DNA of 48,089 nt from a virus. Lineage: Duplodnaviria > Heunggongvirae > Uroviricota > Caudoviricetes. Location of the stretch: the IMG/VR virus record IMGVR_UViG_2648501149_000023; one strand, written 5' to 3'. The translations under genes and the position numbers were made by a program. The notes below the pieces were generated by a model, which was given only the letters and a program-made list of their open reading frames with translations, was not told the origin of the DNA and ran no database searches. Below, piece after piece: positions 38,479 through 48,089 of the stretch; the first letter of the stretch is position 1, and each line of letters begins with the position of its first letter.

Positions 38479-39105
38479 AATCCAGTCCGCCCACCACTGC
38501 ATCATTTCTCTGCGCTTAACGTAGCGGATGCCTCACTATCACACGGTGATAGTCCATTGCTGCTTTGAAGAATGGATAGAGAACTGAGGATAAAAAGATA
38601 TCCCAAAACCCAAAATCTCATCTTTAGGATTTGCAGAAAGGTAGGCGTGAACAAATACCTGCGCATGAAAACGGAACTAGTCCAGATGTGATGTTTGTGG
38701 TGATCACATACATCATTAACGATGCTCGTTATGGTGAGTTTGATGACTACCCGCTGAAGTGAAAATTGTGTTGTGTACCAAATTGCGTACCAAACTAAAA
38801 TCACAAATCATGAAACCCTTGTTCATGGCGGTTCTTAGGGGTGTTGCGCGTAATCGTGAAACAAAAAGGTAGATTGTTGCTTACCGTCATTCATCATTAG
38901 GTTAAATCCGTTATTTCTGCTGTCTGCCAGAGTATCAAATATCACCGTGCTAATCAGCTTTAGCGCGACAATTTGGCAGCGAGTGGCAACAGATCATGTC
39001 AGATAAAAATGAGGTAGTAGTCACATTTTCTTGCACTTTATTCCAGCCAGTTCATAAGTATTTCCGTAAAAAGAACAGCTATTTGAAACACCTGAGGGTT
39101 TGCTG

Positions 39106-40272
39106 TTGAAACGCCGTCTTATTATTGCTGCTTCTTTGTTCGTTTTTAATTTATCGTCTGGTTTTGCGGCGGAAAACATTCCTTTTTCACCTCAGCCTCC
39201 AGAGATTCATGCCGGGTCCTGGGTATTGATGGATTACACCACCGGTCAGATTCTCACCGCGGGTAATGAGCATCAACAGCGCAATCCCGCCAGCCTGACA
39301 AAGCTGATGACGGGCTATGTCGTGGATCGTGCTATCGATAGTCATCGCATTACGCCAGACGATATTGTCACCGTGGGGCGCGATGCGTGGGCGAAAGATA
39401 ATCCGGTGTTTGTCGGTTCTTCACTGATGTTTCTGAAAGAGGGCGATCGCGTATCGGTACGTGATTTAAGCCGTGGTTTAATTGTGGATTCCGGAAATGA
39501 CGCTTGTGTTGCTCTGGCTGACTATATTGCCGGTGGGCAACGGCAGTTTGTTGAAATGATGAACAACTATGCCGAGAAGCTGCATCTCAAGGATACGCAT
39601 TTTGAAACAGTGCATGGTCTGGATGCACCTGGCCAGCATAGCTCGGCTTATGATTTAGCTGTGCTTTCTCGCGCTATCATCCACGGCGAGCCCGAGTTTT
39701 ATCATATGTACAGTGAGAAAAGCCTCACCTGGAACGGTATCACTCAGCAAAACCGTAACGGGTTATTGTGGGATAAAACCATGAATGTTGACGGCCTGAA
39801 AACGGGTCATACTTCTGGTGCCGGGTTTAATCTCATTGCTTCGGCTGTGGATGGGCAGCGTCGTCTCATTGCAGTGGTAATGGGGGCTGACAGTGCAAAA
39901 GGTCGTGAGGAAGAGGCAAGAAAATTACTGCGTTGGGGGCAACAAAACTTTACTACGGTGCAAATTTTGCACCGTGGGAAAAAGGTCGGAACGGAACGCA
40001 TCTGGTATGGCGATAAAGAAAATATCGCCCTGGGAACGGAACAAGAGTTCTGGATGGTGCTACCGAAAGCCGAAATTCCACATATCAAAGCCAAATATAC
40101 CCTTGATGGTAAAGAACTCACCGCGCCAATTAGCGCCCATCAGCGGGTAGGGGAAATTGAACTTTATGACCGTGATAAACAGGTGGCGCACTGGCCGCTG
40201 GTTACCCTGGAATCTGTCGGGGAAGGCAGCATGTTTTCCCGGCTGAGTGATTATTTCCACCATAAGGCCTGA
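39106..40272 (+). CDS. dacD: D-alanyl-D-alanine carboxypeptidase DacD (PBP6b)
   Basis: MKRRLIIAASLFVFNLSSGFAAENIPFSPQPPEIHAGSWVLMDYTTGQILTAGNEHQQRNPASLTKLMTGY... with the SxxK motif; TTG start at 39106 after GAGGG (the ORF track starts at an upstream TTG, 39100). Confidence 0.9.
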   Translation: MKRRLIIAASLFVFNLSSGFAAENIPFSPQPPEIHAGSWVLMDYTTGQILTAGNEHQQRNPASLTKLMTGYVVDRAIDSHRITPDDIVTVGRDAWAKDNPVFVGSSLMFLKEGDRVSVRDLSRGLIVDSGNDACVALADYIAGGQRQFVEMMNNYAEKLHLKDTHFETVHGLDAPGQHSSAYDLAVLSRAIIHGEPEFYHMYSEKSLTWNGITQQNRNGLLWDKTMNVDGLKTGHTSGAGFNLIASAVDGQRRLIAVVMGADSAKGREEEARKLLRWGQQNFTTVQILHRGKKVGTERIWYGDKENIALGTEQEFWMVLPKAEIPHIKAKYTLDGKELTAPISAHQRVGEIELYDRDKQVAHWPLVTLESVGEGSMFSRLSDYFHHKA

Positions 40273-40358
40273 CCTTTCTTTTGCAGCAGACTGGCAGGAG
40301 TGCGAGTCTGCTCGCATAATCAACACTCATTCCTTGTGGTTTTAATATTGCAACTATA

Positions 40359-40374
40359 CTGTATATAAAAACAG
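40359..40374 (+). promoter_or_regulatory. LexA (SOS) box upstream of sbmC
   Basis: CTGTATATAAAAACAG fits the CTGT-N8-ACAG LexA consensus, about 20 bp upstream of the sbmC start. Confidence 0.7.
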
Positions 40375-40390
40375 TGTTAGTGGAGGCGTT

Positions 40391-40864
40391 ATGAACTACG
40401 AGATTAAGCAGGAAGATAAACGTACCGTTGCAGGTTTCCATCTTGTTGGCCCGTGGGAGCAGACGGTAAAGAAAGGTTTTGAGCAGTTGATGATGTGGAT
40501 AGATAGCAAAAATATTGTGCCGAAGGAGTGGGTTGCTGTCTATTACGACAATCCGGATGAAACACCCGCCGAAAAATTACGCTGCGACACCGTCGTGACG
40601 GTACCGAATAACTTTACGCTCCCCGAAAACAGTGAGGGCGTCATTCTGACAGAAATTTCAGGTGGTCAGTATGCGGTGGCGGTGGCTCGTGTAGTCGGTG
40701 ATGATTTTGCTAAACCCTGGTATCAGTTCTTTAATAGCCTCTTGCAGGACAGTGCCTATGAAATGTTACCAAAGCCCTGCTTCGAGGTTTACTTGAACAA
40801 TGGCGCGGAAGATGGGTACTGGGATATCGAAATGTATGTTGCGGTGCAGCCAAAACATCACTAA
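40391..40864 (+). CDS. sbmC: DNA gyrase inhibitor SbmC (GyrI)
   Basis: 157-aa product [47 protein letters not shown]... matches E. coli SbmC (recall). Confidence 0.95.
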
Positions 40865-41061
40865 TTCATCTCAGGGCGGTGTGTTGACGCGAAGACCACT
40901 CTTTTTTTGAAAGTGAAAAGAGTAAGATGCGCCTTTCAATTTTTTCGCTCCTGCCGGGAAATTACACTGTTCCCGGTTTGTCCGTCGGATAATTCAGAGG
41001 CGCGCCTTCTGGCCGACAGATGAGTTATGAGCGCTTTTAATCTTCATTACGGAGTTTCTGT

Positions 41062-42120
41062 GTGCGTGCCGATAAGTCATTAAGCCCGTTTGAAATCTGG
41101 GTATACCGCCATTACCGCATTGTGCATGGTACTCGGGTCGCGCTGGCATTCCTGCTCACTTTTCTCATTATCCGCCTGTTTACTATCCCGGAAAGCACCT
41201 GGCCGCTGGTCACCATGGTGGTGATTATGGGGCCAATCTCGTTCTGGGGGAACGTTGTCCCTCGTGCCTTCGAACGTATTGGCGGTACGGTGTTGGGTTC
41301 GATTTTAGGTCTTATCGCTCTGCAACTGGAGTTAATTTCGTTACCGCTGATGTTAGTCTGGTGCGCGGCGGCGATGTTTCTTTGCGGTTGGCTGGCGCTG
41401 GGCAAGAAACCGTATCAAGGATTATTGATTGGGGTGACGCTGGCAATTGTTGTGGGTTCCCCGACAGGTGAAATTGATACGGCGTTATGGCGAAGCGGCG
41501 ATGTGATCCTCGGCTCTTTACTGGCAATGTTGTTTACCGGTATCTGGCCACAACGCGCGTTCATCCACTGGCGCATTCAACTGGCGAAAAGTCTGACCGA
41601 GTATAATCGGGTCTATCAATCGGCATTCTCACCGAACTTACTCGAACGCCCACGTCTGGAAAGCCATCTACAAAAACTGCTGACCGATGCCGTGAAAATG
41701 CGTGGGCTGATTGCGCCCGCCAGCAAAGAAACCCGTATTCCAAAATCGATATATGAAGGTATCCAGACCATTAATCGCAATCTGGTTTGTATGCTGGAGT
41801 TGCAAATCAATGCATACTGGGCCACGCGCCCCAGCCATTTCGTGTTATTGAACGCGCAAAAACTTCGTGATACCCAGCACATGATGCAGCAAATACTGCT
41901 GAGCCTTGTTCATGCGCTGTACGAAGGTAATCCGCAGCCGGTTTTTGCCAATACGGAAAAATTGAACGATGCTGTGGAAGAGCTGCGTCAGTTGCTGAAT
42001 AACCACCATGACCTGAAGGTTGTGGAAACACCAATCTATGGTTATGTGTGGCTGAACATGGAAACGGCACATCAGCTTGAGTTGCTATCGAGTCTGATTT
42101 GCCGGGCCTTGCGCAAATAA
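41062..42120 (+). CDS. yeeA: Inner membrane protein YeeA
   Basis: 352-aa product MRADKSLSPFEIWVYRHYRIVHGTRVALAFLLTFLIIRLF... ; GTG start after GGAG; matches E. coli YeeA (recall). Confidence 0.9.
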   Translation: MRADKSLSPFEIWVYRHYRIVHGTRVALAFLLTFLIIRLFTIPESTWPLVTMVVIMGPISFWGNVVPRAFERIGGTVLGSILGLIALQLELISLPLMLVWCAAAMFLCGWLALGKKPYQGLLIGVTLAIVVGSPTGEIDTALWRSGDVILGSLLAMLFTGIWPQRAFIHWRIQLAKSLTEYNRVYQSAFSPNLLERPRLESHLQKLLTDAVKMRGLIAPASKETRIPKSIYEGIQTINRNLVCMLELQINAYWATRPSHFVLLNAQKLRDTQHMMQQILLSLVHALYEGNPQPVFANTEKLNDAVEELRQLLNNHHDLKVVETPIYGYVWLNMETAHQLELLSSLICRALRK

Positions 42121-42291
42121 TTCCTGAACTTCAGAATCATCTTGCTGCTGCTTCGATTCAGCAAGGATAAAGGGTATGATAGTGAAAAGGGATAAAAGCA
42201 TTGTCATCTGCGGCAGCTATGAGTAATGTTGGCCCTAACGAATAGCGGTTGCTTAAACGAATCCGACTCTCACATTATCAGGGGTATAAAA

Positions 42292-42621
42292 ATGGAAACT
42301 ACCAAGCCTTCATTCCAGGACGTACTGGAATTTGTTCGTCTGTTCCGTCGTAAGAACAAACTGCAACGTGAAATTCAGGACGTTGAGAAAAAGATCCGTG
42401 ACAACCAGAAGCGCGTCCTGTTGCTGGACAACCTGAGCGATTACATCAAGCCAGGGATGAGCGTTGAAGCAATCCAGGGCATCATCGCCAGCATGAAAGG
42501 TGACTATGAAGATCGCGTTGACGATTACATCATCAAAAATGCCGAGCTCTCCAAAGAACGCCGCGATATCTCCAAAAAGCTGAAAGCTATGGGCGAAATG
42601 AAAAACGGCGAAGCGAAGTAA
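42292..42621 (+). CDS. yeeX: YeeX (DUF496 / UPF0265 protein)
   Basis: [57 protein letters not shown]...; ATG at 42292; the ORF track extends upstream to 42226. Confidence 0.9.
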
Positions 42622-42721
42622 TTCCTGTTTTATTCAATGAGGGTTGCCCGGCAACCCTCAGTGCTCATTGATTCTTATCTGTGTATCACCGTCATCATTC
42701 TCATCTGAGAACCTATCGAAA

Positions 42722-42904
42722 TTAGCGACAGCCTTCTTCTGTATGCAGCAAGGCAAAAAGTTCTGTAACTCCATTGTTATTAACCGCACTGGTTACTAAC
42801 ACGTTGTGCGCTCCAGCTTCCCGTAACCAACATTTCACCAAAGATGTTTGTTCCATACTGGCTAAATCTGCTTTGGTTACTACTCCAATGACCGGGTGAT
42901 TCAT
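42722..42904 (-). pseudogene. yoeF: Truncated EutP/PduV-like GTPase C-terminal fragment (yoeF-like)
   Basis: ...NHPVIGVVTKADLASMEQTSLVKCWLREAGAHNVLVTSAVNNNGVTELFALLHTEEGCR resembles the C-terminus of EutP-family proteins; the upstream part of the ORF (to 43078) is antisense to the IS66-like fragment and is not genuine coding sequence. Confidence 0.5.
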
Positions 42905-43131
42905 GGCCCGGTAGGGCGTTTTTACCTCTAATTCCTGCTTCAGCGCTGAGATTCCTGCTTGTTGCCGGAAAAGCAGGCACCTGCCGTCTGAACGGTATCG
43001 ATCCGGAAGCGTATCTGCGCCATATTCTGAGCATACTGCCGGAATGGCCCTCCAACCGTGTTGACGAACTCCTGCCATGGAACGTAGTTCTCACCAATAA
43101 ATAAGCGTCAATACGGTGCTCCGTTGACGCT
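42905..43131 (+). mobile_element. IS66-family element remnant (3' end of transposase ORF plus terminal inverted repeat)
   Basis: Plus-frame translation ...GKAGTCRLNGIDPEAYLRHILSILPEWPSNRVDELLPWNVVLTNK* resembles IS66 transposase C-termini; followed by AGCGTCAATACGGTGCTCCGTTGACGCTTAC, ending in a GTAAGCG-type terminus on the opposite strand. Left boundary is approximate. Confidence 0.5.
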
Positions 43132-43518
43132 TACTTTAATCCGTTTTCTGAGCTTAGATTTTTCTGTTCCTACCCAGACCGTGGATTTGGAATTCATTTT
43201 TTGTCAGGTCAATGCTAATCGTTAAAACGGCCATAACGCACCTCCACTGGAAGGTTTATCAGTAATATCCTACCGTTGCTTCATGGTCGGGGCGTCCATT
43301 CCATTATTATCGGTTTTCCTTTCTGTTTATAAATGAAAACGCCAGCTGTATTCAGGCTGGCGTCAGGGGAAATGAAGCCTGTTGAGTGAGATTCACCGGT
43401 TCTGGTGCAGAAGCTGCAGATGGCGCAGGGTAAGGACATCTTCTCTTGCCTGCTTAATACAGGACAACAGTGCTGTTTCTGTGGTTAATGGCACTATACC
43501 CTGCATCACTGCATTGTC

Positions 43519-43713
43519 TTACAGCAACTGGTGAGGGCTGGCATAAGTTGCCGGTGTTTCGGTAGAGTCACGGTCATCCACCACGCGGAGTGAATAACCG
43601 TTTTCAGCGGCCTTATTAATCAGCTCAGTGATATTAACACCATCAATGTCAACGACAATGTGCCCCATATCCAGCGCCTGTACGTTAACGCTGTCGGCTT
43701 CCAGTGTCATCAT
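43519..43713 (-). CDS. yeeW: YeeW (CP4-44-type small protein)
   Basis: MMTLEADSVNVQALDMGHIVVDIDGVNITELINKAAENGYSLRVVDDRDSTETPATYASPHQLL; its ATG overlaps the cbtA-frame stop (ATGA). Confidence 0.7.
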   Translation of the reverse strand: MMTLEADSVNVQALDMGHIVVDIDGVNITELINKAAENGYSLRVVDDRDSTETPATYASPHQLL

Positions 43714-44083
43714 TTCGCCTCCGGATACTTACCCAGGGTAATGTTATTTACCGTTCTGTAATTGTCGCGGGTCATCAGGCCGGTCGCCCTGCGAGCCCGG
43801 AGGATATCGATGCTGTTTATTAACTGAGAGCGGGTACAGGCGCTGAATCCCGGCTGGTCGGTAGCACCAGCGCGTATTTTTCCACGAGAAAGTTCACCGC
43901 ATCACACAGTGAAATGCCTGCCTCAATATGCTGCTCAATCACACGTTCATCGGCAAAAGGTGTGTCATTCTGTGTGAGGCCATAGTGCTGGTCCAGCAGT
44001 CGGGACAGCAGTATCTGCCAGATTTCAACAGGAGACGGGCGAGAACTGGCCGCCTGCCCGGGTAATACAGGTAATGTTTTCAT
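43710..44083 (-). pseudogene. cbtA: cbtA (yeeV) toxin gene disrupted by a frameshift
   Basis: N-terminal 71 codons ([73 protein letters not shown]) then frame change near 43858-43868; the remaining CbtA-like sequence ([49 protein letters not shown]) continues in the -1 frame to 43710. Confidence 0.75.
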
Positions 44084-44171
44084 ACTGAAGATTTTCCTGA
44101 TATGCAGATATAAAAATGGAAAAGTGGCGTGGTGAAAACACCAGGCCGTAGCAGAAGGCTATTCTGGAGAG

Positions 44172-44540
44172 TTAATTTTTCATTTCGGGCGTCGGATAAA
44201 CAGCCAGATAAACGTAACCACAACTGCTGAGGGTATCGGCTTTGCAGGTCAGCCCTTTTGCATACAGCGTGACGGTATGCTGATGGCGGGGATTCAGTTC
44301 ACCGCTGGTGAGCATGAGTTCCAGTTGTTTCATCAGCAGCGGAAAGGCCTGGTCCAGGTGGTACGCATCTGCATCGCTGAACAGGCCTCTGATACCGGCG
44401 CGGTCGGCAAGGTAATGCAACCGGTTACCCTCCTGCACCAGACGTGCCCCGAAACAGGGCGTCACGGTGCAGGGCAGCCCCCACCAGGGGCGGTCGTGAT
44501 TGTCGTCGGGAAGTGTTGTCCCGGGGAGTGTGTCTGACAC
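44172..44540 (-). CDS. cbeA: CbeA (YeeU) antitoxin
   Basis: 122-aa product MSDTLPGTTLPDDNHDRPWWGLPCTVTPCFGARLVQEGNRLHYLADRAGIRGLF... matches YeeU/CbeA (recall). Confidence 0.9.
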   Translation of the reverse strand: MSDTLPGTTLPDDNHDRPWWGLPCTVTPCFGARLVQEGNRLHYLADRAGIRGLFSDADAYHLDQAFPLLMKQLELMLTSGELNPRHQHTVTLYAKGLTCKADTLSSCGYVYLAVYPTPEMKN

Positions 44541-44613
44541 GATAAAATCCTTACAGAAAATCGGCTAAGAATGGTCCGGTAGTGGCGATAATTCTGCTCA
44601 TCAGAATTCCCAC

Positions 44614-44835
44614 TCAGTTCAGGGTGACGCTCATCAGCCGGACATACGGACCAAAACTGTCCTTACGGCGTTCAGCAAACACGGCCAGCACACCGGGAAT
44701 ATCCTGCACTTCACGACCGGTATACGCTTCAGCACTGCCGTGCCAGCGGTATTTACCGGTACAGAACGGAAAAAGACGGGATGTCGGATGTTGTTGGTGA
44801 ATACGCATGGCTTCACCACGGGTGATAATTTTCAT
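44614..44835 (-). CDS. yeeT: YeeT (DUF987)
   Basis: 73-aa product MKIITRGEAMRIHQQHPTSRLFPFCTGKYRWHGSAEAYTGREVQDIPGVLAVFAERRKD... Confidence 0.85.
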   Translation of the reverse strand: MKIITRGEAMRIHQQHPTSRLFPFCTGKYRWHGSAEAYTGREVQDIPGVLAVFAERRKDSFGPYVRLMSVTLN

Positions 44836-44897
44836 AATGGGATACCTCTGAAGACAGAAGATAAAAGTGAAAACAGGTGTGATGTGGTTGTGAAGGG

Positions 44898-45374
44898 TTA
44901 AAGCAGACTATGTTCGGCAAAGGAGAAAACCTGGTTGCCACCGACTATCAGATGGTCCGGCACCCGGATATCCACCAGGCCCAGTGCCTGTACCAGACGT
45001 TCGGTGATAAGCCGGTCTGCCTTACTGGGTGTGACTTCACCGGACGGGTGATTGTGTGCCAGTACCACGGCAGCGGCATTGTGGTACAGGGCGCGTTTAA
45101 TCACTTCCCGGGGATGGACTTCCGTGCGGTTGATGGTGCCGGTGAAGAGGGTTTCACCGGCAATCAGCTGATTCTGGTTGTTCAGATACAGCACCCGGAA
45201 TTCTTCACGCTCCAGTCCCGCCATGTTCAGAATCAGCCATTCCCGTGCTGCACGGGTGGAGGTGAAGGCCACGCCGGGTTCATGAAGATGGCGGTCCAGG
45301 GTTTTCAGGGCCCGTTGAATGAGGCTGCGCTCGCCGGGCGTCATCTCTCCGGGCAGAAAGGAAAGTTGTTGCAT
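44898..45374 (-). CDS. yeeS: RadC-like JAB-domain protein YeeS
   Basis: MQQLSFLPGEMTPGERSLIQRALKTLD...VVLAHNHPSGEVTPSKADRLIT... (JAMM H-x-H...S...D motif); ATG at 45374 with GGAGAG RBS. Confidence 0.85.
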   Translation of the reverse strand: MQQLSFLPGEMTPGERSLIQRALKTLDRHLHEPGVAFTSTRAAREWLILNMAGLEREEFRVLYLNNQNQLIAGETLFTGTINRTEVHPREVIKRALYHNAAAVVLAHNHPSGEVTPSKADRLITERLVQALGLVDIRVPDHLIVGGNQVFSFAEHSLL

Positions 45375-45389
45375 TGTGCTTCTCTCCAT

Positions 45390-45869
45390 TCAGTCGATGA
45401 TGCGCATAATGGCGCTGCATTCCGGATGCTGCAGGGCGTAATCCCGCAACCGGTAATAATGAACCGTCATGGCATAATTCTCCGTACGACAGGCATGATG
45501 ACTGTACGTCATCAGACAGGCGGTAATACCGGCGGCTTCCGGGCTCATTTCTGCGCGGTTACCGTTCATGGCATTGAACAGTACCCATGTTTCGTCATCA
45601 TCATCATCCGGTTCGGGTGCCATAAATGCCCCGCCGTTGTTCAGGGTGTACAGATTCCAGATACCACCGCAGTAGTCTTCGCACAGACGGTCCATCCAGC
45701 CGAAGACACGGGGCTCCAGGGTCACCCACTGTGGAATGAGGCCAAAATGCTGCGGCCAGAAGCTGATGCGCTGTTCATCAGGGACGAGGCTGGCAACCAA
45801 CTGAGGCGGATTATTCTCTGGTGTTGTAGCTGAATAAATTGTGGGGGTATTCTGAGAAACGGTTTTCAT
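45390..45869 (-). CDS. Antirestriction protein (ArdB/KlcA family)
   Basis: 159-aa ORF ...ISFWPQHFGLIPQWVTLEPRVFGWMDRLCEDYCGGIWNLYTLNNGGAFMAPE... matches YfjX/KlcA-type antirestriction proteins (recall). Confidence 0.8.
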   Translation of the reverse strand: MKTVSQNTPTIYSATTPENNPPQLVASLVPDEQRISFWPQHFGLIPQWVTLEPRVFGWMDRLCEDYCGGIWNLYTLNNGGAFMAPEPDDDDDETWVLFNAMNGNRAEMSPEAAGITACLMTYSHHACRTENYAMTVHYYRLRDYALQHPECSAIMRIID

Positions 45870-45950
45870 GAGATAACTCCTTAAATAACAAATAAATGTG
45901 TGTTTTTCAGGAACGAAAGCTGAATGATTCCCTCACTCAGGGAAACGGCA

Positions 45951-46769
45951 TCAGCGCAGGCTCTCCAGCATCGTTTCTGCCATCACCCACAATGCGCGAT
46001 TGAGCTTAATGTCGGTATCAATGCTGTGAATGGCCCGGGTATGGATACGTTTTCCTTTTGCACTGCGACCGGAAATCCCGCCTTTCAGCATATTCTCCTG
46101 GATGGTCTGATATGCGCTCCACAGGTCCTTACCGTAATCCTCCCGGCGTCGCGGCGTCAGAATGTCGGCGGTGGTGACGGGCTGATGTTCGTCACCATAA
46201 CGGTAAGTCAGTGCCGCCTGTGCCAGCGCCTGGCGTGCCGGTGGCGGCAGGACCAGCGACTGCATGGCATCACGCTTCTCCTCTATCCGGTCAAACACGC
46301 CCACCACCTCGTAAGCCCCTTCGATAACTTTCTCCACTACATTTCCCCGGTGTGGAACACGCACTTCCCCCAGAGACTGGCCACAGACGCCCCCGTTCTG
46401 GCAGACGAACCTGAAGTAACCCGGCAGCATCTGGTAGCTGGAGGTACCGTCATGAGAGTTGAGCAGAATAATTTCAGGGACATGTTCTCCGTTTATCTCT
46501 CCGGCCCGCCGCAGACGCAGCATGTGTTTTGTGTATCCCCGGCGGCCCGGGTCGCGCACACGGGTCTGGCAGGCGAAGAACGGCTGAAAGCCTTCCCGCT
46601 GCAGATTTTCCAGGACGGTAATGGTGGGAATGTACGCATACCGTTCACTGCGGGAGGTATGCCGGTCTTCCCCAAAAATACTGGGTACATAGTGCATCAG
46701 TTCTTCGTGTGTCAGCGGACGGTCACGGCGTATCTGGTTTACATGACCAAAACGACTTGCTAATCGCAT
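45951..46769 (-). CDS. DUF932-family protein (YfjQ/YafZ-like)
   Basis: 272-aa ORF at the usual position upstream of the antirestriction and radC genes in CP4-type elements; family from recall. Confidence 0.65.
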   Translation of the reverse strand: MRLASRFGHVNQIRRDRPLTHEELMHYVPSIFGEDRHTSRSERYAYIPTITVLENLQREGFQPFFACQTRVRDPGRRGYTKHMLRLRRAGEINGEHVPEIILLNSHDGTSSYQMLPGYFRFVCQNGGVCGQSLGEVRVPHRGNVVEKVIEGAYEVVGVFDRIEEKRDAMQSLVLPPPARQALAQAALTYRYGDEHQPVTTADILTPRRREDYGKDLWSAYQTIQENMLKGGISGRSAKGKRIHTRAIHSIDTDIKLNRALWVMAETMLESLR

Positions 46770-46979
46770 GATTTGCTCCTTATGAATGAGTTAGCGGTAT
46801 AAATGAAAAAGCTGCGTCTCCCGGAGAAGACGCGGCCTGACGGGTGAAATGAATAAGGTTTATTGTCTGAGAGGCCTTTCACTGGCGAGCCACGCATTAA
46901 GCGGCTTTCCGGTAACAATGGCTGGGGCTGTATTTACCTTTGATATTAATAATGTGCAGAGAAACGCATGGTTTACTCC

Positions 46980-47390
46980 TTAGATTTTAAGTTTGTCCTG
47001 GGCTACAACGACAGGTTTTCCGGATGTGTCGATGACTCCTACCGTCGGTACGCCATTTTTGATTTCGAAGAACGGTTTGTTGCTACCTGAGCACAGTTGA
47101 TTGTCCCCGTATTCAATCATTTGTGCTTTCCCGGTTTTCAGGTTAACTACCGAGACAGTGTAGTCGTAGCACCAGGCACCACCACGTTCAAGCACGAAAA
47201 CATAGCTGTTATCTTTATAGTTGAACTGATTCTTTGTCTGGCAATTCATACCGTCAATTTCGGTACAGGAAAACGCTTCTGTAGTATTAACGTATTTGAT
47301 GTTATTTGGCAGTTTTACTTGTTTCGCAGTAGCGAAGACAGAGAACAGAATAGTTACAGCAACGAGTAAAGTTTTGATAAAAGTTTTCAT
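46980..47390 (-). CDS. Secreted Cys-containing protein of unknown function (136 aa)
   Basis: N-terminal signal peptide MKTFIKTLLVAVTILFSVFATA; four Cys in the mature part; no recognisable domain. Confidence 0.55.
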   Translation of the reverse strand: MKTFIKTLLVAVTILFSVFATAKQVKLPNNIKYVNTTEAFSCTEIDGMNCQTKNQFNYKDNSYVFVLERGGAWCYDYTVSVVNLKTGKAQMIEYGDNQLCSGSNKPFFEIKNGVPTVGVIDTSGKPVVVAQDKLKI

Positions 47391-47405
47391 GATAGACTCC
47401 TTAAA

Positions 47406-47892
47406 TTAGTTAACCGCAGCTACGTAGTTTTTCACCAGATACGCGAATTCATGCACGCCAATTTCACCGAACCAAACCAGGTAGGCCGGGTCATCTAAAC
47501 CAAAGTAACGGTAGCCAACAACTTCATGGGTTTTTGGGTTATAGAGTGTTACGATAAAGTCCCAGCCGCAGGTATTGGCTTTGCAACCGTCGCCCTGGAA
47601 CCAGACTGTACCGTTAATGTTTACTGGCGTGATACCTCCACCAGGGCCATCCATATAGCCGCCTTTACCGAACATGCCGCTCAGTCCGACCGGTTTTAAT
47701 GCTTTGTCGATAGCGGCTTTGTAGGTAGCGTCACCTTCGTACAACTCGTACGTTGATGGACACGCTCCAGGTTGTTCAGCCCAGGCTTCTGGGTTACAAC
47801 TAAGAGCTTGTTTTACGGTAGCCGCTTCTGCGTTAAAGTTAAAGCCCGTGAACAGAACCGCCAGAAATAACATAAGGGTATGTAAACGTTTC
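47406..47892 (-). CDS. Secreted protein of unknown function (about 162 aa)
   Basis: ATG at 47892 (MKRLHTLMLFLAVLFTGFNFNAEA-AT, signal peptide) preceded by GGAAG; the ORF-track version extends in frame to the window edge (48089), so the true start is uncertain. Confidence 0.45.
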
Positions 47893-48089
47893 ATTGTAAA
47901 TATTCTTCCGTTGTAAATGGCGCTGGAAAATTTCTCATCAGTGAAACCTTCCGGAAGTTTCCCCCCCTTGTATGATGTATATCGCCAGTATTTTATTTCA
48001 TCCCGGCTGTAATTTTTATATTCCCCGGCACGTGCAATAACGCTGACCAGAGATATAAGGCTCATTAATAACTTTACAGGTAATTTCAT

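Follow-up and report, generated by a model that had tools for sequence, protein, structure and literature searches.

The Ivy proteins (Escherichia coli YkfE/Ivyc and Pseudomonas aeruginosa Ivyp1; PF08816, NF007443; PDB entries 1gpq, 1xs0 and 1uuz) are encoded at the chromosomal ivy locus. Their inhibitory loop, CKPHDC, carries the His residue that enters the active site of lysozyme. Why the periplasm of Gram-negative bacteria should contain inhibitors of an animal enzyme that seldom gets there is an old puzzle. Lytic transglycosylases are a further target of Ivy proteins in vitro, the E. coli protein being a weak inhibitor, and Ivy proteins are induced by peptidoglycan stress (PMC10139938). 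Among phages, T4 encodes Spackle (gp61.3), a periplasmic protein that inhibits the gp5 tail lysozyme and gives superinfection exclusion (PMC7677548, PMC7650644). According to passages of the PHAGEPACK preprint, the protein hypo_04657 of a T7-non-permissive E. coli O121 is Ivy-like, with a CKANTC loop and a helical 'transmembrane' part (bioRxiv 10.1101/2024.04.20.590424). Here, we describe two adjacent genes, open reading frame (ORF) 1 and ORF2, of the IMG/VR virus record IMGVR_UViG_2648501149_000023; this whole stretch of 48,089 nucleotides is called the window. Whereas Ivy belongs to a chromosomal locus, ORF2 is found in jumbo phages and in CP4-type islands. It is very likely that ORF2 encodes an Ivy-type protein and, at the same time, that the pair came from a jumbo phage.

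ORF2 (47406–47894, minus strand, 162 residues) precedes ORF1 (46980–47390, minus strand, 136 residues), and 15 nt separate the stop codon of ORF2 from the start of ORF1. A first-pass annotation of this DNA had placed two consecutive minus-strand genes here, and they were found at that place; the ATG of ORF2 is at 47894–47892, and the end coordinate 47892 given in that annotation is the G of the start codon. The annotation had also described the products as small, Cys-containing proteins with signal peptides, and the sequences agree. Four Cys residues are present in each mature protein (42, 50, 74 and 100 in ORF1; 33, 45, 104 and 109 in ORF2), and all four are invariant across the alleles of ORF1 and across those of ORF2, as are the core motifs. 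The N-terminus of ORF1 is MKTFIKTLLVAVTILFSVFATA/KQ (the slash marks the putative cleavage site), parsed as MKTFIK-TLLVAVTILFSVF-ATA/KQ, and that of ORF2 is MKRLHTLMLFLAVLFTGFNFNAEA/AT, parsed as MKRLH-TLMLFLAVLFTGF-NFNAEA/AT. The predicted Sec-type signal peptides thus correspond to approximately residues 1–22 of ORF1 (47325–47390, minus strand) and 1–24 of ORF2 (47823–47894, minus strand). Both N-termini show basic residues, a 12-residue hydrophobic core (mean Kyte–Doolittle value 2.5–2.9) and an A-x-A cleavage motif; in ORF2, the basic n-region is followed by a core with a value of 2.53 and an AEA/A site. No lipobox Cys was found in either N-terminus as read from the sequence. We infer that ORF1 and ORF2 are exported to the periplasm, with cleavage of the signal peptidase I type.

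ORF1 and ORF2 are real genes and not chance ORFs, because the ratio of nonsynonymous to synonymous substitution rates (dN/dS, Nei–Gojobori) is 0.13–0.25 in every pairwise comparison of island and phage alleles (0.14–0.25 for ORF1) and because 2409 of 5426 complete E. coli genomes (44%) carry the 954-bp block containing them. The distribution across CP4-like elements was a check which the first-pass annotation had proposed. A Shine–Dalgarno sequence, AAGGAG (47397–47402, minus strand), was read 6 nt before the ATG of ORF1. A similar sequence, GGAAG (47905–47909, minus strand), is located 10 nt upstream of the ATG of ORF2; in the alignment of island and phage upstream DNA, its counterpart is the GGAG before the phage gene.

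The first-pass annotation had found no motif that it could place. With direct searches this holds: ORF2 has no Pfam match at E ≤ 1, and nothing significant was obtained for ORF2 or ORF1 in Pfam, NCBIfam, PADLOC and the PDB sequences. The NCBIfam Ivy model NF007443 matched ORF2 below threshold (E = 0.19, 11.6 bits against a cut-off of 180), and the ORF2 family profile reached the E. coli Ivy structures at an E-value of about 1 with CKANTC set on CKPHDC. Such sub-threshold matches were taken as leads only. However, both proteins could be placed by profile searches, as that annotation had advised, ORF2 in the Ivy superfamily through intermediates and ORF1 in phrog_8968. A profile of eight ORF2 alleles, searched against 1.84 billion representatives, collected 57 proteins, the distant ones at E-values from 1e-21 to 1e-4. 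All 20 distant full-length relatives tested, which share 20–30% identity with ORF2, match PF08816 (Ivy). When the eight ORF2 alleles were aligned to these 20 Ivy relatives by hhalign, the probability was 99.8% with E = 6.7e-28 over 142 columns. The nearest relatives outside E. coli are proteins of 314–316 residues in Pectobacterium and Salmonella, named 'Ivy family c-type lysozyme inhibitor' at NCBI. The membership of ORF2 in Ivy therefore holds at the superfamily level only, via these intermediates, as judged from sequence comparison; ORF2 itself lies below the direct family thresholds.

The structure prediction, another check proposed in the first-pass annotation, is in line with the profile searches. 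The AlphaFold2 model of ORF2, of medium confidence (predicted local distance difference test, pLDDT, 71.7), shows the Ivy fold, namely a five-stranded antiparallel sheet with flanking helices. ORF2 differs from Ivy in an additional N-terminal Cys pair, C33 and C45, which it has in common with the CExHNC subfamily. The top PDB profile match of ORF2 was the beta-mannanase 3vup (E = 0.018), and this candidate was rejected since the aligned stretch is short and has no structural support. As for the relatives of 314–316 residues, P0088 and P0090 (Pectobacterium and Salmonella enterica) begin with an Ivy domain and continue in a long C-terminal extension, which matches DUF7908 weakly, and some Salmonella copies are labelled 'prophage protein'.

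The loop C104-K-A-N-T-C109 of ORF2 (codons at 47568–47585, minus strand) is the counterpart of the inhibitory loop of Ivy. According to both the HMMER and the hhalign alignments, it is set on CKPHDC of 1gpq and 1xs0. The likeness of CKANTC to the Ivy loop, a speculation in the first-pass annotation, is thus borne out by the weak matches, which align at this point, and by the family profile, which reaches members of Pfam Ivy. Neither C104 nor C109 varies among 23 relatives, and C33 and C45 are nearly invariant. The C-x4-C loop at the inhibitory position is predicted to be closed by a disulfide. In comparison with CKPHDC, the His, Pro and Asp are gone from the loop of ORF2, so that the window allele lacks the residue entering the lysozyme active site. 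The other alleles have CKANAC, CKSNAC, CKSDAC or CKAHAC, and the key position is accordingly N, D or H. In the distant relatives, the loop is C-E/K/Q-x-H-N-C with His conserved in at least 90%. The three positions before the loop (101–103) are among the most variable of the protein, with an entropy of 1.3–2.0, and the CGW and TLYNP motifs after the loop are invariant across the alleles.

The block with the two genes is homologous to jumbo-phage DNA over 954 bp (46948–47901), a stretch with both ORFs and the beginning of the phage gene that comes next. In the blastn comparison between the window and the phage contig L012, only 47901 to 46948 was matched, at 77.5% nucleotide identity; the phage contig L010 was compared as well. 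The matching stretch extends from 7 nt before the ATG of ORF2 to 23 nt into a phage gene similar to gp083 of the Salmonella jumbo phage SPN3US. As read from the sequence, what is left of this gene in the window is a stub encoding MRFSAHY and a stop (46946–46969, minus strand), preceded by its own GGAG. The stub aligns with the start of a 129-residue phage gene (MRLICAL.../MRFICAL...). ORF2 alleles of 59–75% identity are located on long contigs (64–221 kb in ENA and Logan, 107–225 kb in IMG/VR), and each of these phage alleles is followed 11–15 nt on by an orthologue of ORF1. The source phages are uncultured SPN3US-like phages of about 225 kb. The gene order of the phage array is YfjT-like, gp086-like, Ivy-like, gp084-like (ORF1), gp083-like, gp082-like, gp081-like and SMC, and the same order was observed in the IMG/VR jumbo-phage contigs L022–L025. 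The phage contigs are syntenic with gp080–gp092 of SPN3US, with the difference that the Ivy-like gene fills the gp085 slot. Phage copies of ORF2 were found in uncultured contigs only: none of 50,697 deposited phage genomes was matched by ORF2 in tblastn, and no viral protein of Ivy fold was among the Foldseek matches in BFVD.

The direction of transfer is from phage to island, because the phage neighbours are truncated in the islands, full-length copies are present in the phages, and orthologues of ORF1 occur across the whole phage lineage. Exchange between phages and islands has taken place more than once. By synonymous divergence (dS), ORF1 of the island L008 is closer to the phage alleles (0.64–0.72) than to ORF1 of the window (1.45), and one phage contig encodes an ORF2 N-terminus that is 93% identical to that of the window. 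The histories of the ORF1 and ORF2 alleles disagree in L008, which suggests repeated recombination between phage and island DNA inside the block. In the comparison of L008:5806–6912 with window 46980–48089, ORF2 of L008 is nearer to ORF2 of the window, and ORF1 of L008 is nearer to the phage alleles. One or two secreted proteins of the YfjT family (PF27224) are also encoded in the jumbo-phage array (L012:5106–5567 and L010:4598–5551). YfjT takes its name from a gene that belongs to CP4-57, an E. coli element. CP4-type islands and these jumbo phages may thus share more than one periplasmic protein family, and the presence of YfjT-like proteins in the same phage array suggests that such islands collect phage-derived periplasmic genes.

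ORF1 matches phrog_8968 over the full length (E = 2.6e-45, residues 1–131 on 1–133 of the 135 profile positions). It is an orthologue of gp084 of SPN3US, with 37% identity. In SPN3US, gp084 is one of a run of small signal-peptide genes (gp086 to gp083), and an SMC-like gene lies downstream of this run. ORF1 and gp084 are alike in the signal peptide, in the four-Cys pattern and in the place between the gp085 slot and gp083; in L010, L012 and L022–L025, the orthologue likewise lies between the Ivy-like and gp083-like genes, upstream of SMC, at the position of gp084. According to tblastn, proteins with 30–37% identity to ORF1 are encoded in 40 deposited phage genomes of 233–249 kb, namely those of the Salmonella SPN3US group, of the Erwinia phages phiEaH2 and Asesino, of Proteus phage 7 and of two phages of E. 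coli. The neighbours gp085 (phrog_17072), gp084 and gp083 (phrog_5248) are weak paralogues with a common F...C...G..C...C skeleton. In a search of 5.8 billion proteins, the ORF1 profile matched only the E. coli island copies and these jumbo-phage proteins, and no relative from that search carries a name or a Pfam domain. The AlphaFold2 model of ORF1 is all-beta with a pLDDT of 63.6. ORF1 differs from gp084 in being located in a bacterial island, and membership in phrog_8968 assigns no activity to it. MliC/PliC, PliG and PliI, further families of lysozyme inhibitors in the periplasm, were considered as candidate families for ORF1. ORF1 would be an independent second periplasmic protein of the same phage array, with a beta-rich fold stabilized by disulfides. 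A family so far found in phages only thus has a member, of a putatively exported type, that is retained in bacteria.

The RefSeq/PGAP gene model for ORF2 is longer, with 227 residues (47406–48089). The additional 65 codons (47895–48089, minus strand), in frame with ORF2, are the remnant of a third secreted-protein gene: the 65-residue extension shows 49% identity to residues 1–63 of a 180-residue protein encoded at L004:7098–7640. In L004-type islands, the intact gene of this protein is located between the patatin gene and the Ivy-like gene. In the island allele L008, the extension contains an in-frame stop and many radical substitutions, whereas the Ivy-like ORF of 161 residues is intact. The ORF2 genes of the phages and of several islands start at MKRL. 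Thus, the sequence comparison identifies the 227-residue model, a very common 'hypothetical protein' of E. coli in RefSeq, as a chimera of ORF2 and a remnant of another gene. The 162-residue form is taken as the functional product because of the stop in L008, the MKRL starts elsewhere and the GGAAG retained before the ATG of ORF2. The 227-residue protein as the main product was rejected, the extension being homologous to the N-terminus of another gene and interrupted in L008. If the long form is made, the signal peptide of ORF2 would come after a segment that has been exported already; it would probably act as a stop-transfer anchor, and the Ivy domain would be left in the cytoplasm.

One published phenotype concerns this gene. 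The guide GGGAATATAAAAATTACAGC, given in the supplement of the preprint for CRISPR interference (CRISPRi), has one exact match in the window, at 48006–48025 (minus strand), inside the 65-codon extension and beside an NGG protospacer-adjacent motif. From this exact match, hypo_04657 is the same gene as ORF2 in its 227-residue model. According to the preprint passages, the efficiency of plating (EOP) of T7 on knockdown of hypo_04657, with K-12 as the reference, was 1.09, 1.5 and 1.0, and the control had an EOP of 0 (10.1101/2024.04.20.590424). The passages and the present analysis agree on the CKANTC loop and on the superposition with Ivy; the preprint uses the long gene model, takes the extra helices as a transmembrane domain and proposes T7 lysozyme as the target. 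In these passages, there is no mention of the downstream ORF1, of a chimeric gene model or of a jumbo-phage origin. The kind of inhibitor is known already, and the gene had been flagged as Ivy-like in these passages in 2024; the homology via intermediates, the altered and variable loop, the chimeric model, the place of ORF1 in phrog_8968 and the jumbo-phage origin are new as far as we found. A periplasmic Ivy-type protein would be more likely to encounter the transglycosylase domain of gp16, an ejection protein of T7, than T7 lysozyme. A terminator-like hairpin with a T-run is present between ORF1 and the DUF932 gene (46814–46833, minus strand; GCGTCT-TCTCCGGG-AGACGC and then the T-run). It was found by a consensus scan and is a pattern match only; if functional, it would confine the polarity of CRISPRi to ORF2 and ORF1.

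The explanation that we consider best overall, with about an even chance of being correct, is that a captured jumbo-phage block supplies, in ORF2, a periplasmic inhibitor of phage enzymes that cut the cell wall. A 954-bp piece of the secreted-protein array of an SPN3US-like phage would have entered the cargo slot of CP4-44-type islands of E. coli and Shigella. In the periplasm, ORF2 would adopt the Ivy-type fold with the disulfide-closed C-x4-C loop and act as a stoichiometric inhibitor, binding a peptidoglycan glycosidase of lysozyme fold through this loop. The likeliest targets would be the virion lysozymes or lytic transglycosylases of incoming phages. A phage enzyme is proposed because the gene is present in lytic phages and because the loop His needed against C-type lysozyme is replaced. 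In the phage, such a protein may serve superinfection exclusion or protection from lysis from without; in the island, it may give resistance to incoming phages at the level of the envelope. T4 Spackle and ORF2 are both small, phage-encoded proteins with signal peptides, and Spackle serves as a functional model, with ORF2 built on an Ivy scaffold instead. The anti-phage inhibitor mechanism of ORF2 taken by itself is tentative and has somewhat less than an even chance. A wider form, in which the block is a domesticated superinfection-exclusion array and ORF1, as a new class of periplasmic inhibitor, neutralizes virion wall-cutting enzymes together with ORF2, is doubtful.

Several observations weigh against an anti-phage inhibitor. 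The loop His is replaced by Asn in the window allele, and the medium-confidence model of ORF2 was built on eight close sequences. No PADLOC-DB v2 model matches ORF1, ORF2 or the 180-residue protein at E ≤ 1e-3. In the commonest island allele ORF1 is absent, which means that ORF1 is not needed for the role of ORF2. T7 lysozyme, gp3.5, is an amidase that stays in the cytoplasm until lysis, and the gp16 transglycosylase is dispensable under standard conditions. Ivy-type inhibition alone could thus hardly account for a full rescue of T7. Moreover, the guide lies upstream of ORF2, and the knockdown is thus polar on ORF2 and ORF1 and possibly on genes beyond. In the preprint passages, many unrelated knockdowns (rclR, csgD and coaE) also gave an EOP near 1, and the effect may be non-specific (10.1101/2024.04.20.590424). 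The same similarity of EOP would be expected if the block were functionless, hitch-hiking phage DNA and if polarity, off-target effects or secondary O-antigen mutants had produced the T7 phenotype as an artefact. The adjoining captured DNA is indeed decaying (the gp083-like stub, a gp086-like pseudogene and the remnant of the 180-residue gene), and ORF1 is deleted in the commonest island type. However, both ORFs are intact in the window and are under the purifying selection described above while their neighbours decay, the four Cys residues and the core motifs are invariant, and several diverged alleles are maintained. Hitch-hiking is thus very unlikely.

Three further explanations assign other targets to the product. 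A classical Ivy, directed against animal C-type lysozyme after a breach of the outer membrane and serving as an accessory of colonization or virulence, would agree with the fold and homology of ORF2, with the annotation of its closest named relatives and with the widespread allele P0014, which retains the loop His (CKAHAC). Nevertheless, we regard it as unlikely: Asn and not His occupies the key position in the window allele and in all phage alleles, lytic jumbo phages carry the gene and gain nothing from resistance to animal lysozyme, and the sole recorded phenotype, that in the preprint passages, concerns a phage. Furthermore, the E. coli chromosome already carries ivy and mliC. Muramidase toxins, such as glycoside-hydrolase effectors of the type VI secretion system (T6SS) or pesticin-like lysozyme bacteriocins, are another conceivable target, with ORF2, and perhaps ORF1, as orphan immunity-type proteins. 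A small, periplasmic inhibitor fold with predicted disulfides on a mobile element would suit this role, the high variability of residues 101–103 next to the loop resembles that of a conflict interface, and known T6SS immunity proteins, Tgi2 among them, likewise plug the cleft of the active site (cited in PMC7650644). Yet no effector gene, T6SS, Rhs or contact-dependent inhibition context is located nearby, and the ancestral setting is a phage array, not an immunity island, so that this role is quite improbable. Finally, ORF1 and ORF2 could modulate wall enzymes of the cell or of the phage itself (host lytic transglycosylases, premature lysis or lysis from without), the island copy being a remnant whose housekeeping effect is mild. 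Protection against lysis from without is another property of T4 Spackle, and the inhibition of lytic transglycosylases by Ivy proteins in vitro and their induction by peptidoglycan stress (PMC10139938) point in the same direction. The probability of such modulation is nonetheless small, in view of the weak action of E. coli Ivy on these enzymes and of the purifying selection and 44% prevalence away from the phage, which indicate a benefit to the bacterium itself.

Inhibition of incoming phage enzymes by ORF2 would bear on the old puzzle of the Ivy family. An Ivy-type gene that is carried by lytic jumbo phages, has been copied repeatedly to islands and is linked to T7 resistance by one CRISPRi result gives a test of the idea that wall enzymes of phages and bacteria are the targets. 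If this reading is true, the block would be a widespread anti-phage defence at the envelope level, present in approximately 44% of E. coli and missing from the current defence catalogues. It would further suggest that Ivy-type inhibitors evolved mainly for the conflict between phages and bacteria rather than against animal lysozyme.

In the window, the two genes belong to the arm of a CP4-44-type island, as the first-pass annotation had proposed in calling them cargo. The conserved part (43519–46769, minus strand) contains yeeW, a frameshifted cbtA, cbeA, yeeT, yeeS (RadC/JAB), an antirestriction gene and a DUF932 gene, followed by ORF1 and ORF2; in the direction of transcription, the arm lies directly downstream of the pair. 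The same neighbourhood was observed in L003–L009. In cbtA (43710–44083, minus strand), the ORF ends after 87 residues owing to the frameshift, which RefSeq also flags in ATCC 11775 and in one O111:H8 strain, and the antitoxin gene cbeA (44172–44540) is intact. An Rfam search of the whole window found no RNA family at the gathering thresholds, and for 46600–48089 there was no match even at E ≤ 1.

The block is restricted, among cellular genomes, to E. coli and Shigella; in a pattern-based scan of 185,579 species representatives, Shigella flexneri alone had it. The L004 island type contains the commonest ORF2 allele (864 contigs), with a frameshifted gp086-like pseudogene upstream and with ORF1 lost; most islands of this type are without ORF1. 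An obligate pair, either toxin and immunity or a two-component inhibitor, was considered and rejected, as both proteins are of the exported type, neither has an enzyme domain, and this commonest island has ORF2 without ORF1. The intact gene at L004:7098–7640 encodes a putatively secreted, Cys-containing protein without a family in Pfam, PHROGs or PADLOC, and it is followed by the gp086-like remnant (L004:7687–7979) and then by the Ivy-like gene.

The end of the window coincides exactly with the start of the RefSeq gene model of ORF2. In related genomes, the next genes on the same strand encode a patatin-like phospholipase, a YjcZ/RdcB-family protein, a dynamin-like GTPase and a further GTPase. 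In ATCC 11775, this same-strand run, beyond the right end of the window (L001:13526–20216), consists of a GTPase, a 798-residue dynamin-like protein, a YjcZ/RdcB-family protein and the patatin-like phospholipase. Weak PADLOC matches to LeoBC (dynamin-type defence) and to a phospholipase effector were obtained for the run. Located immediately upstream of the genes for the secreted proteins, it is a possible candidate for a defence operon.

Positions 38849–48089 of the window are gaplessly colinear with E. coli ATCC 11775 at 99.3% identity. The colinear stretch begins with dacD, sbmC, yeeA and tmaR, and after tmaR there are small remnants, namely a EutP-like gene, a transposase fragment and a DUF957 fragment. 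Positions 1–38848 are a P22-like lambdoid prophage adjoining dacD and are not colinear with ATCC 11775, where the wca, O-antigen and his genes are located. The prophage encodes a portal, a P22-type capsid, head-completion proteins gp4 and gp10, ejection proteins, a tailspike and an acyltransferase. Genomes of E. coli O111:H8 match it best (for a 24-kb query, 96% identity with 80% coverage), and a related O111:H8 prophage carries tRNA-Asn and tRNA-Thr genes.

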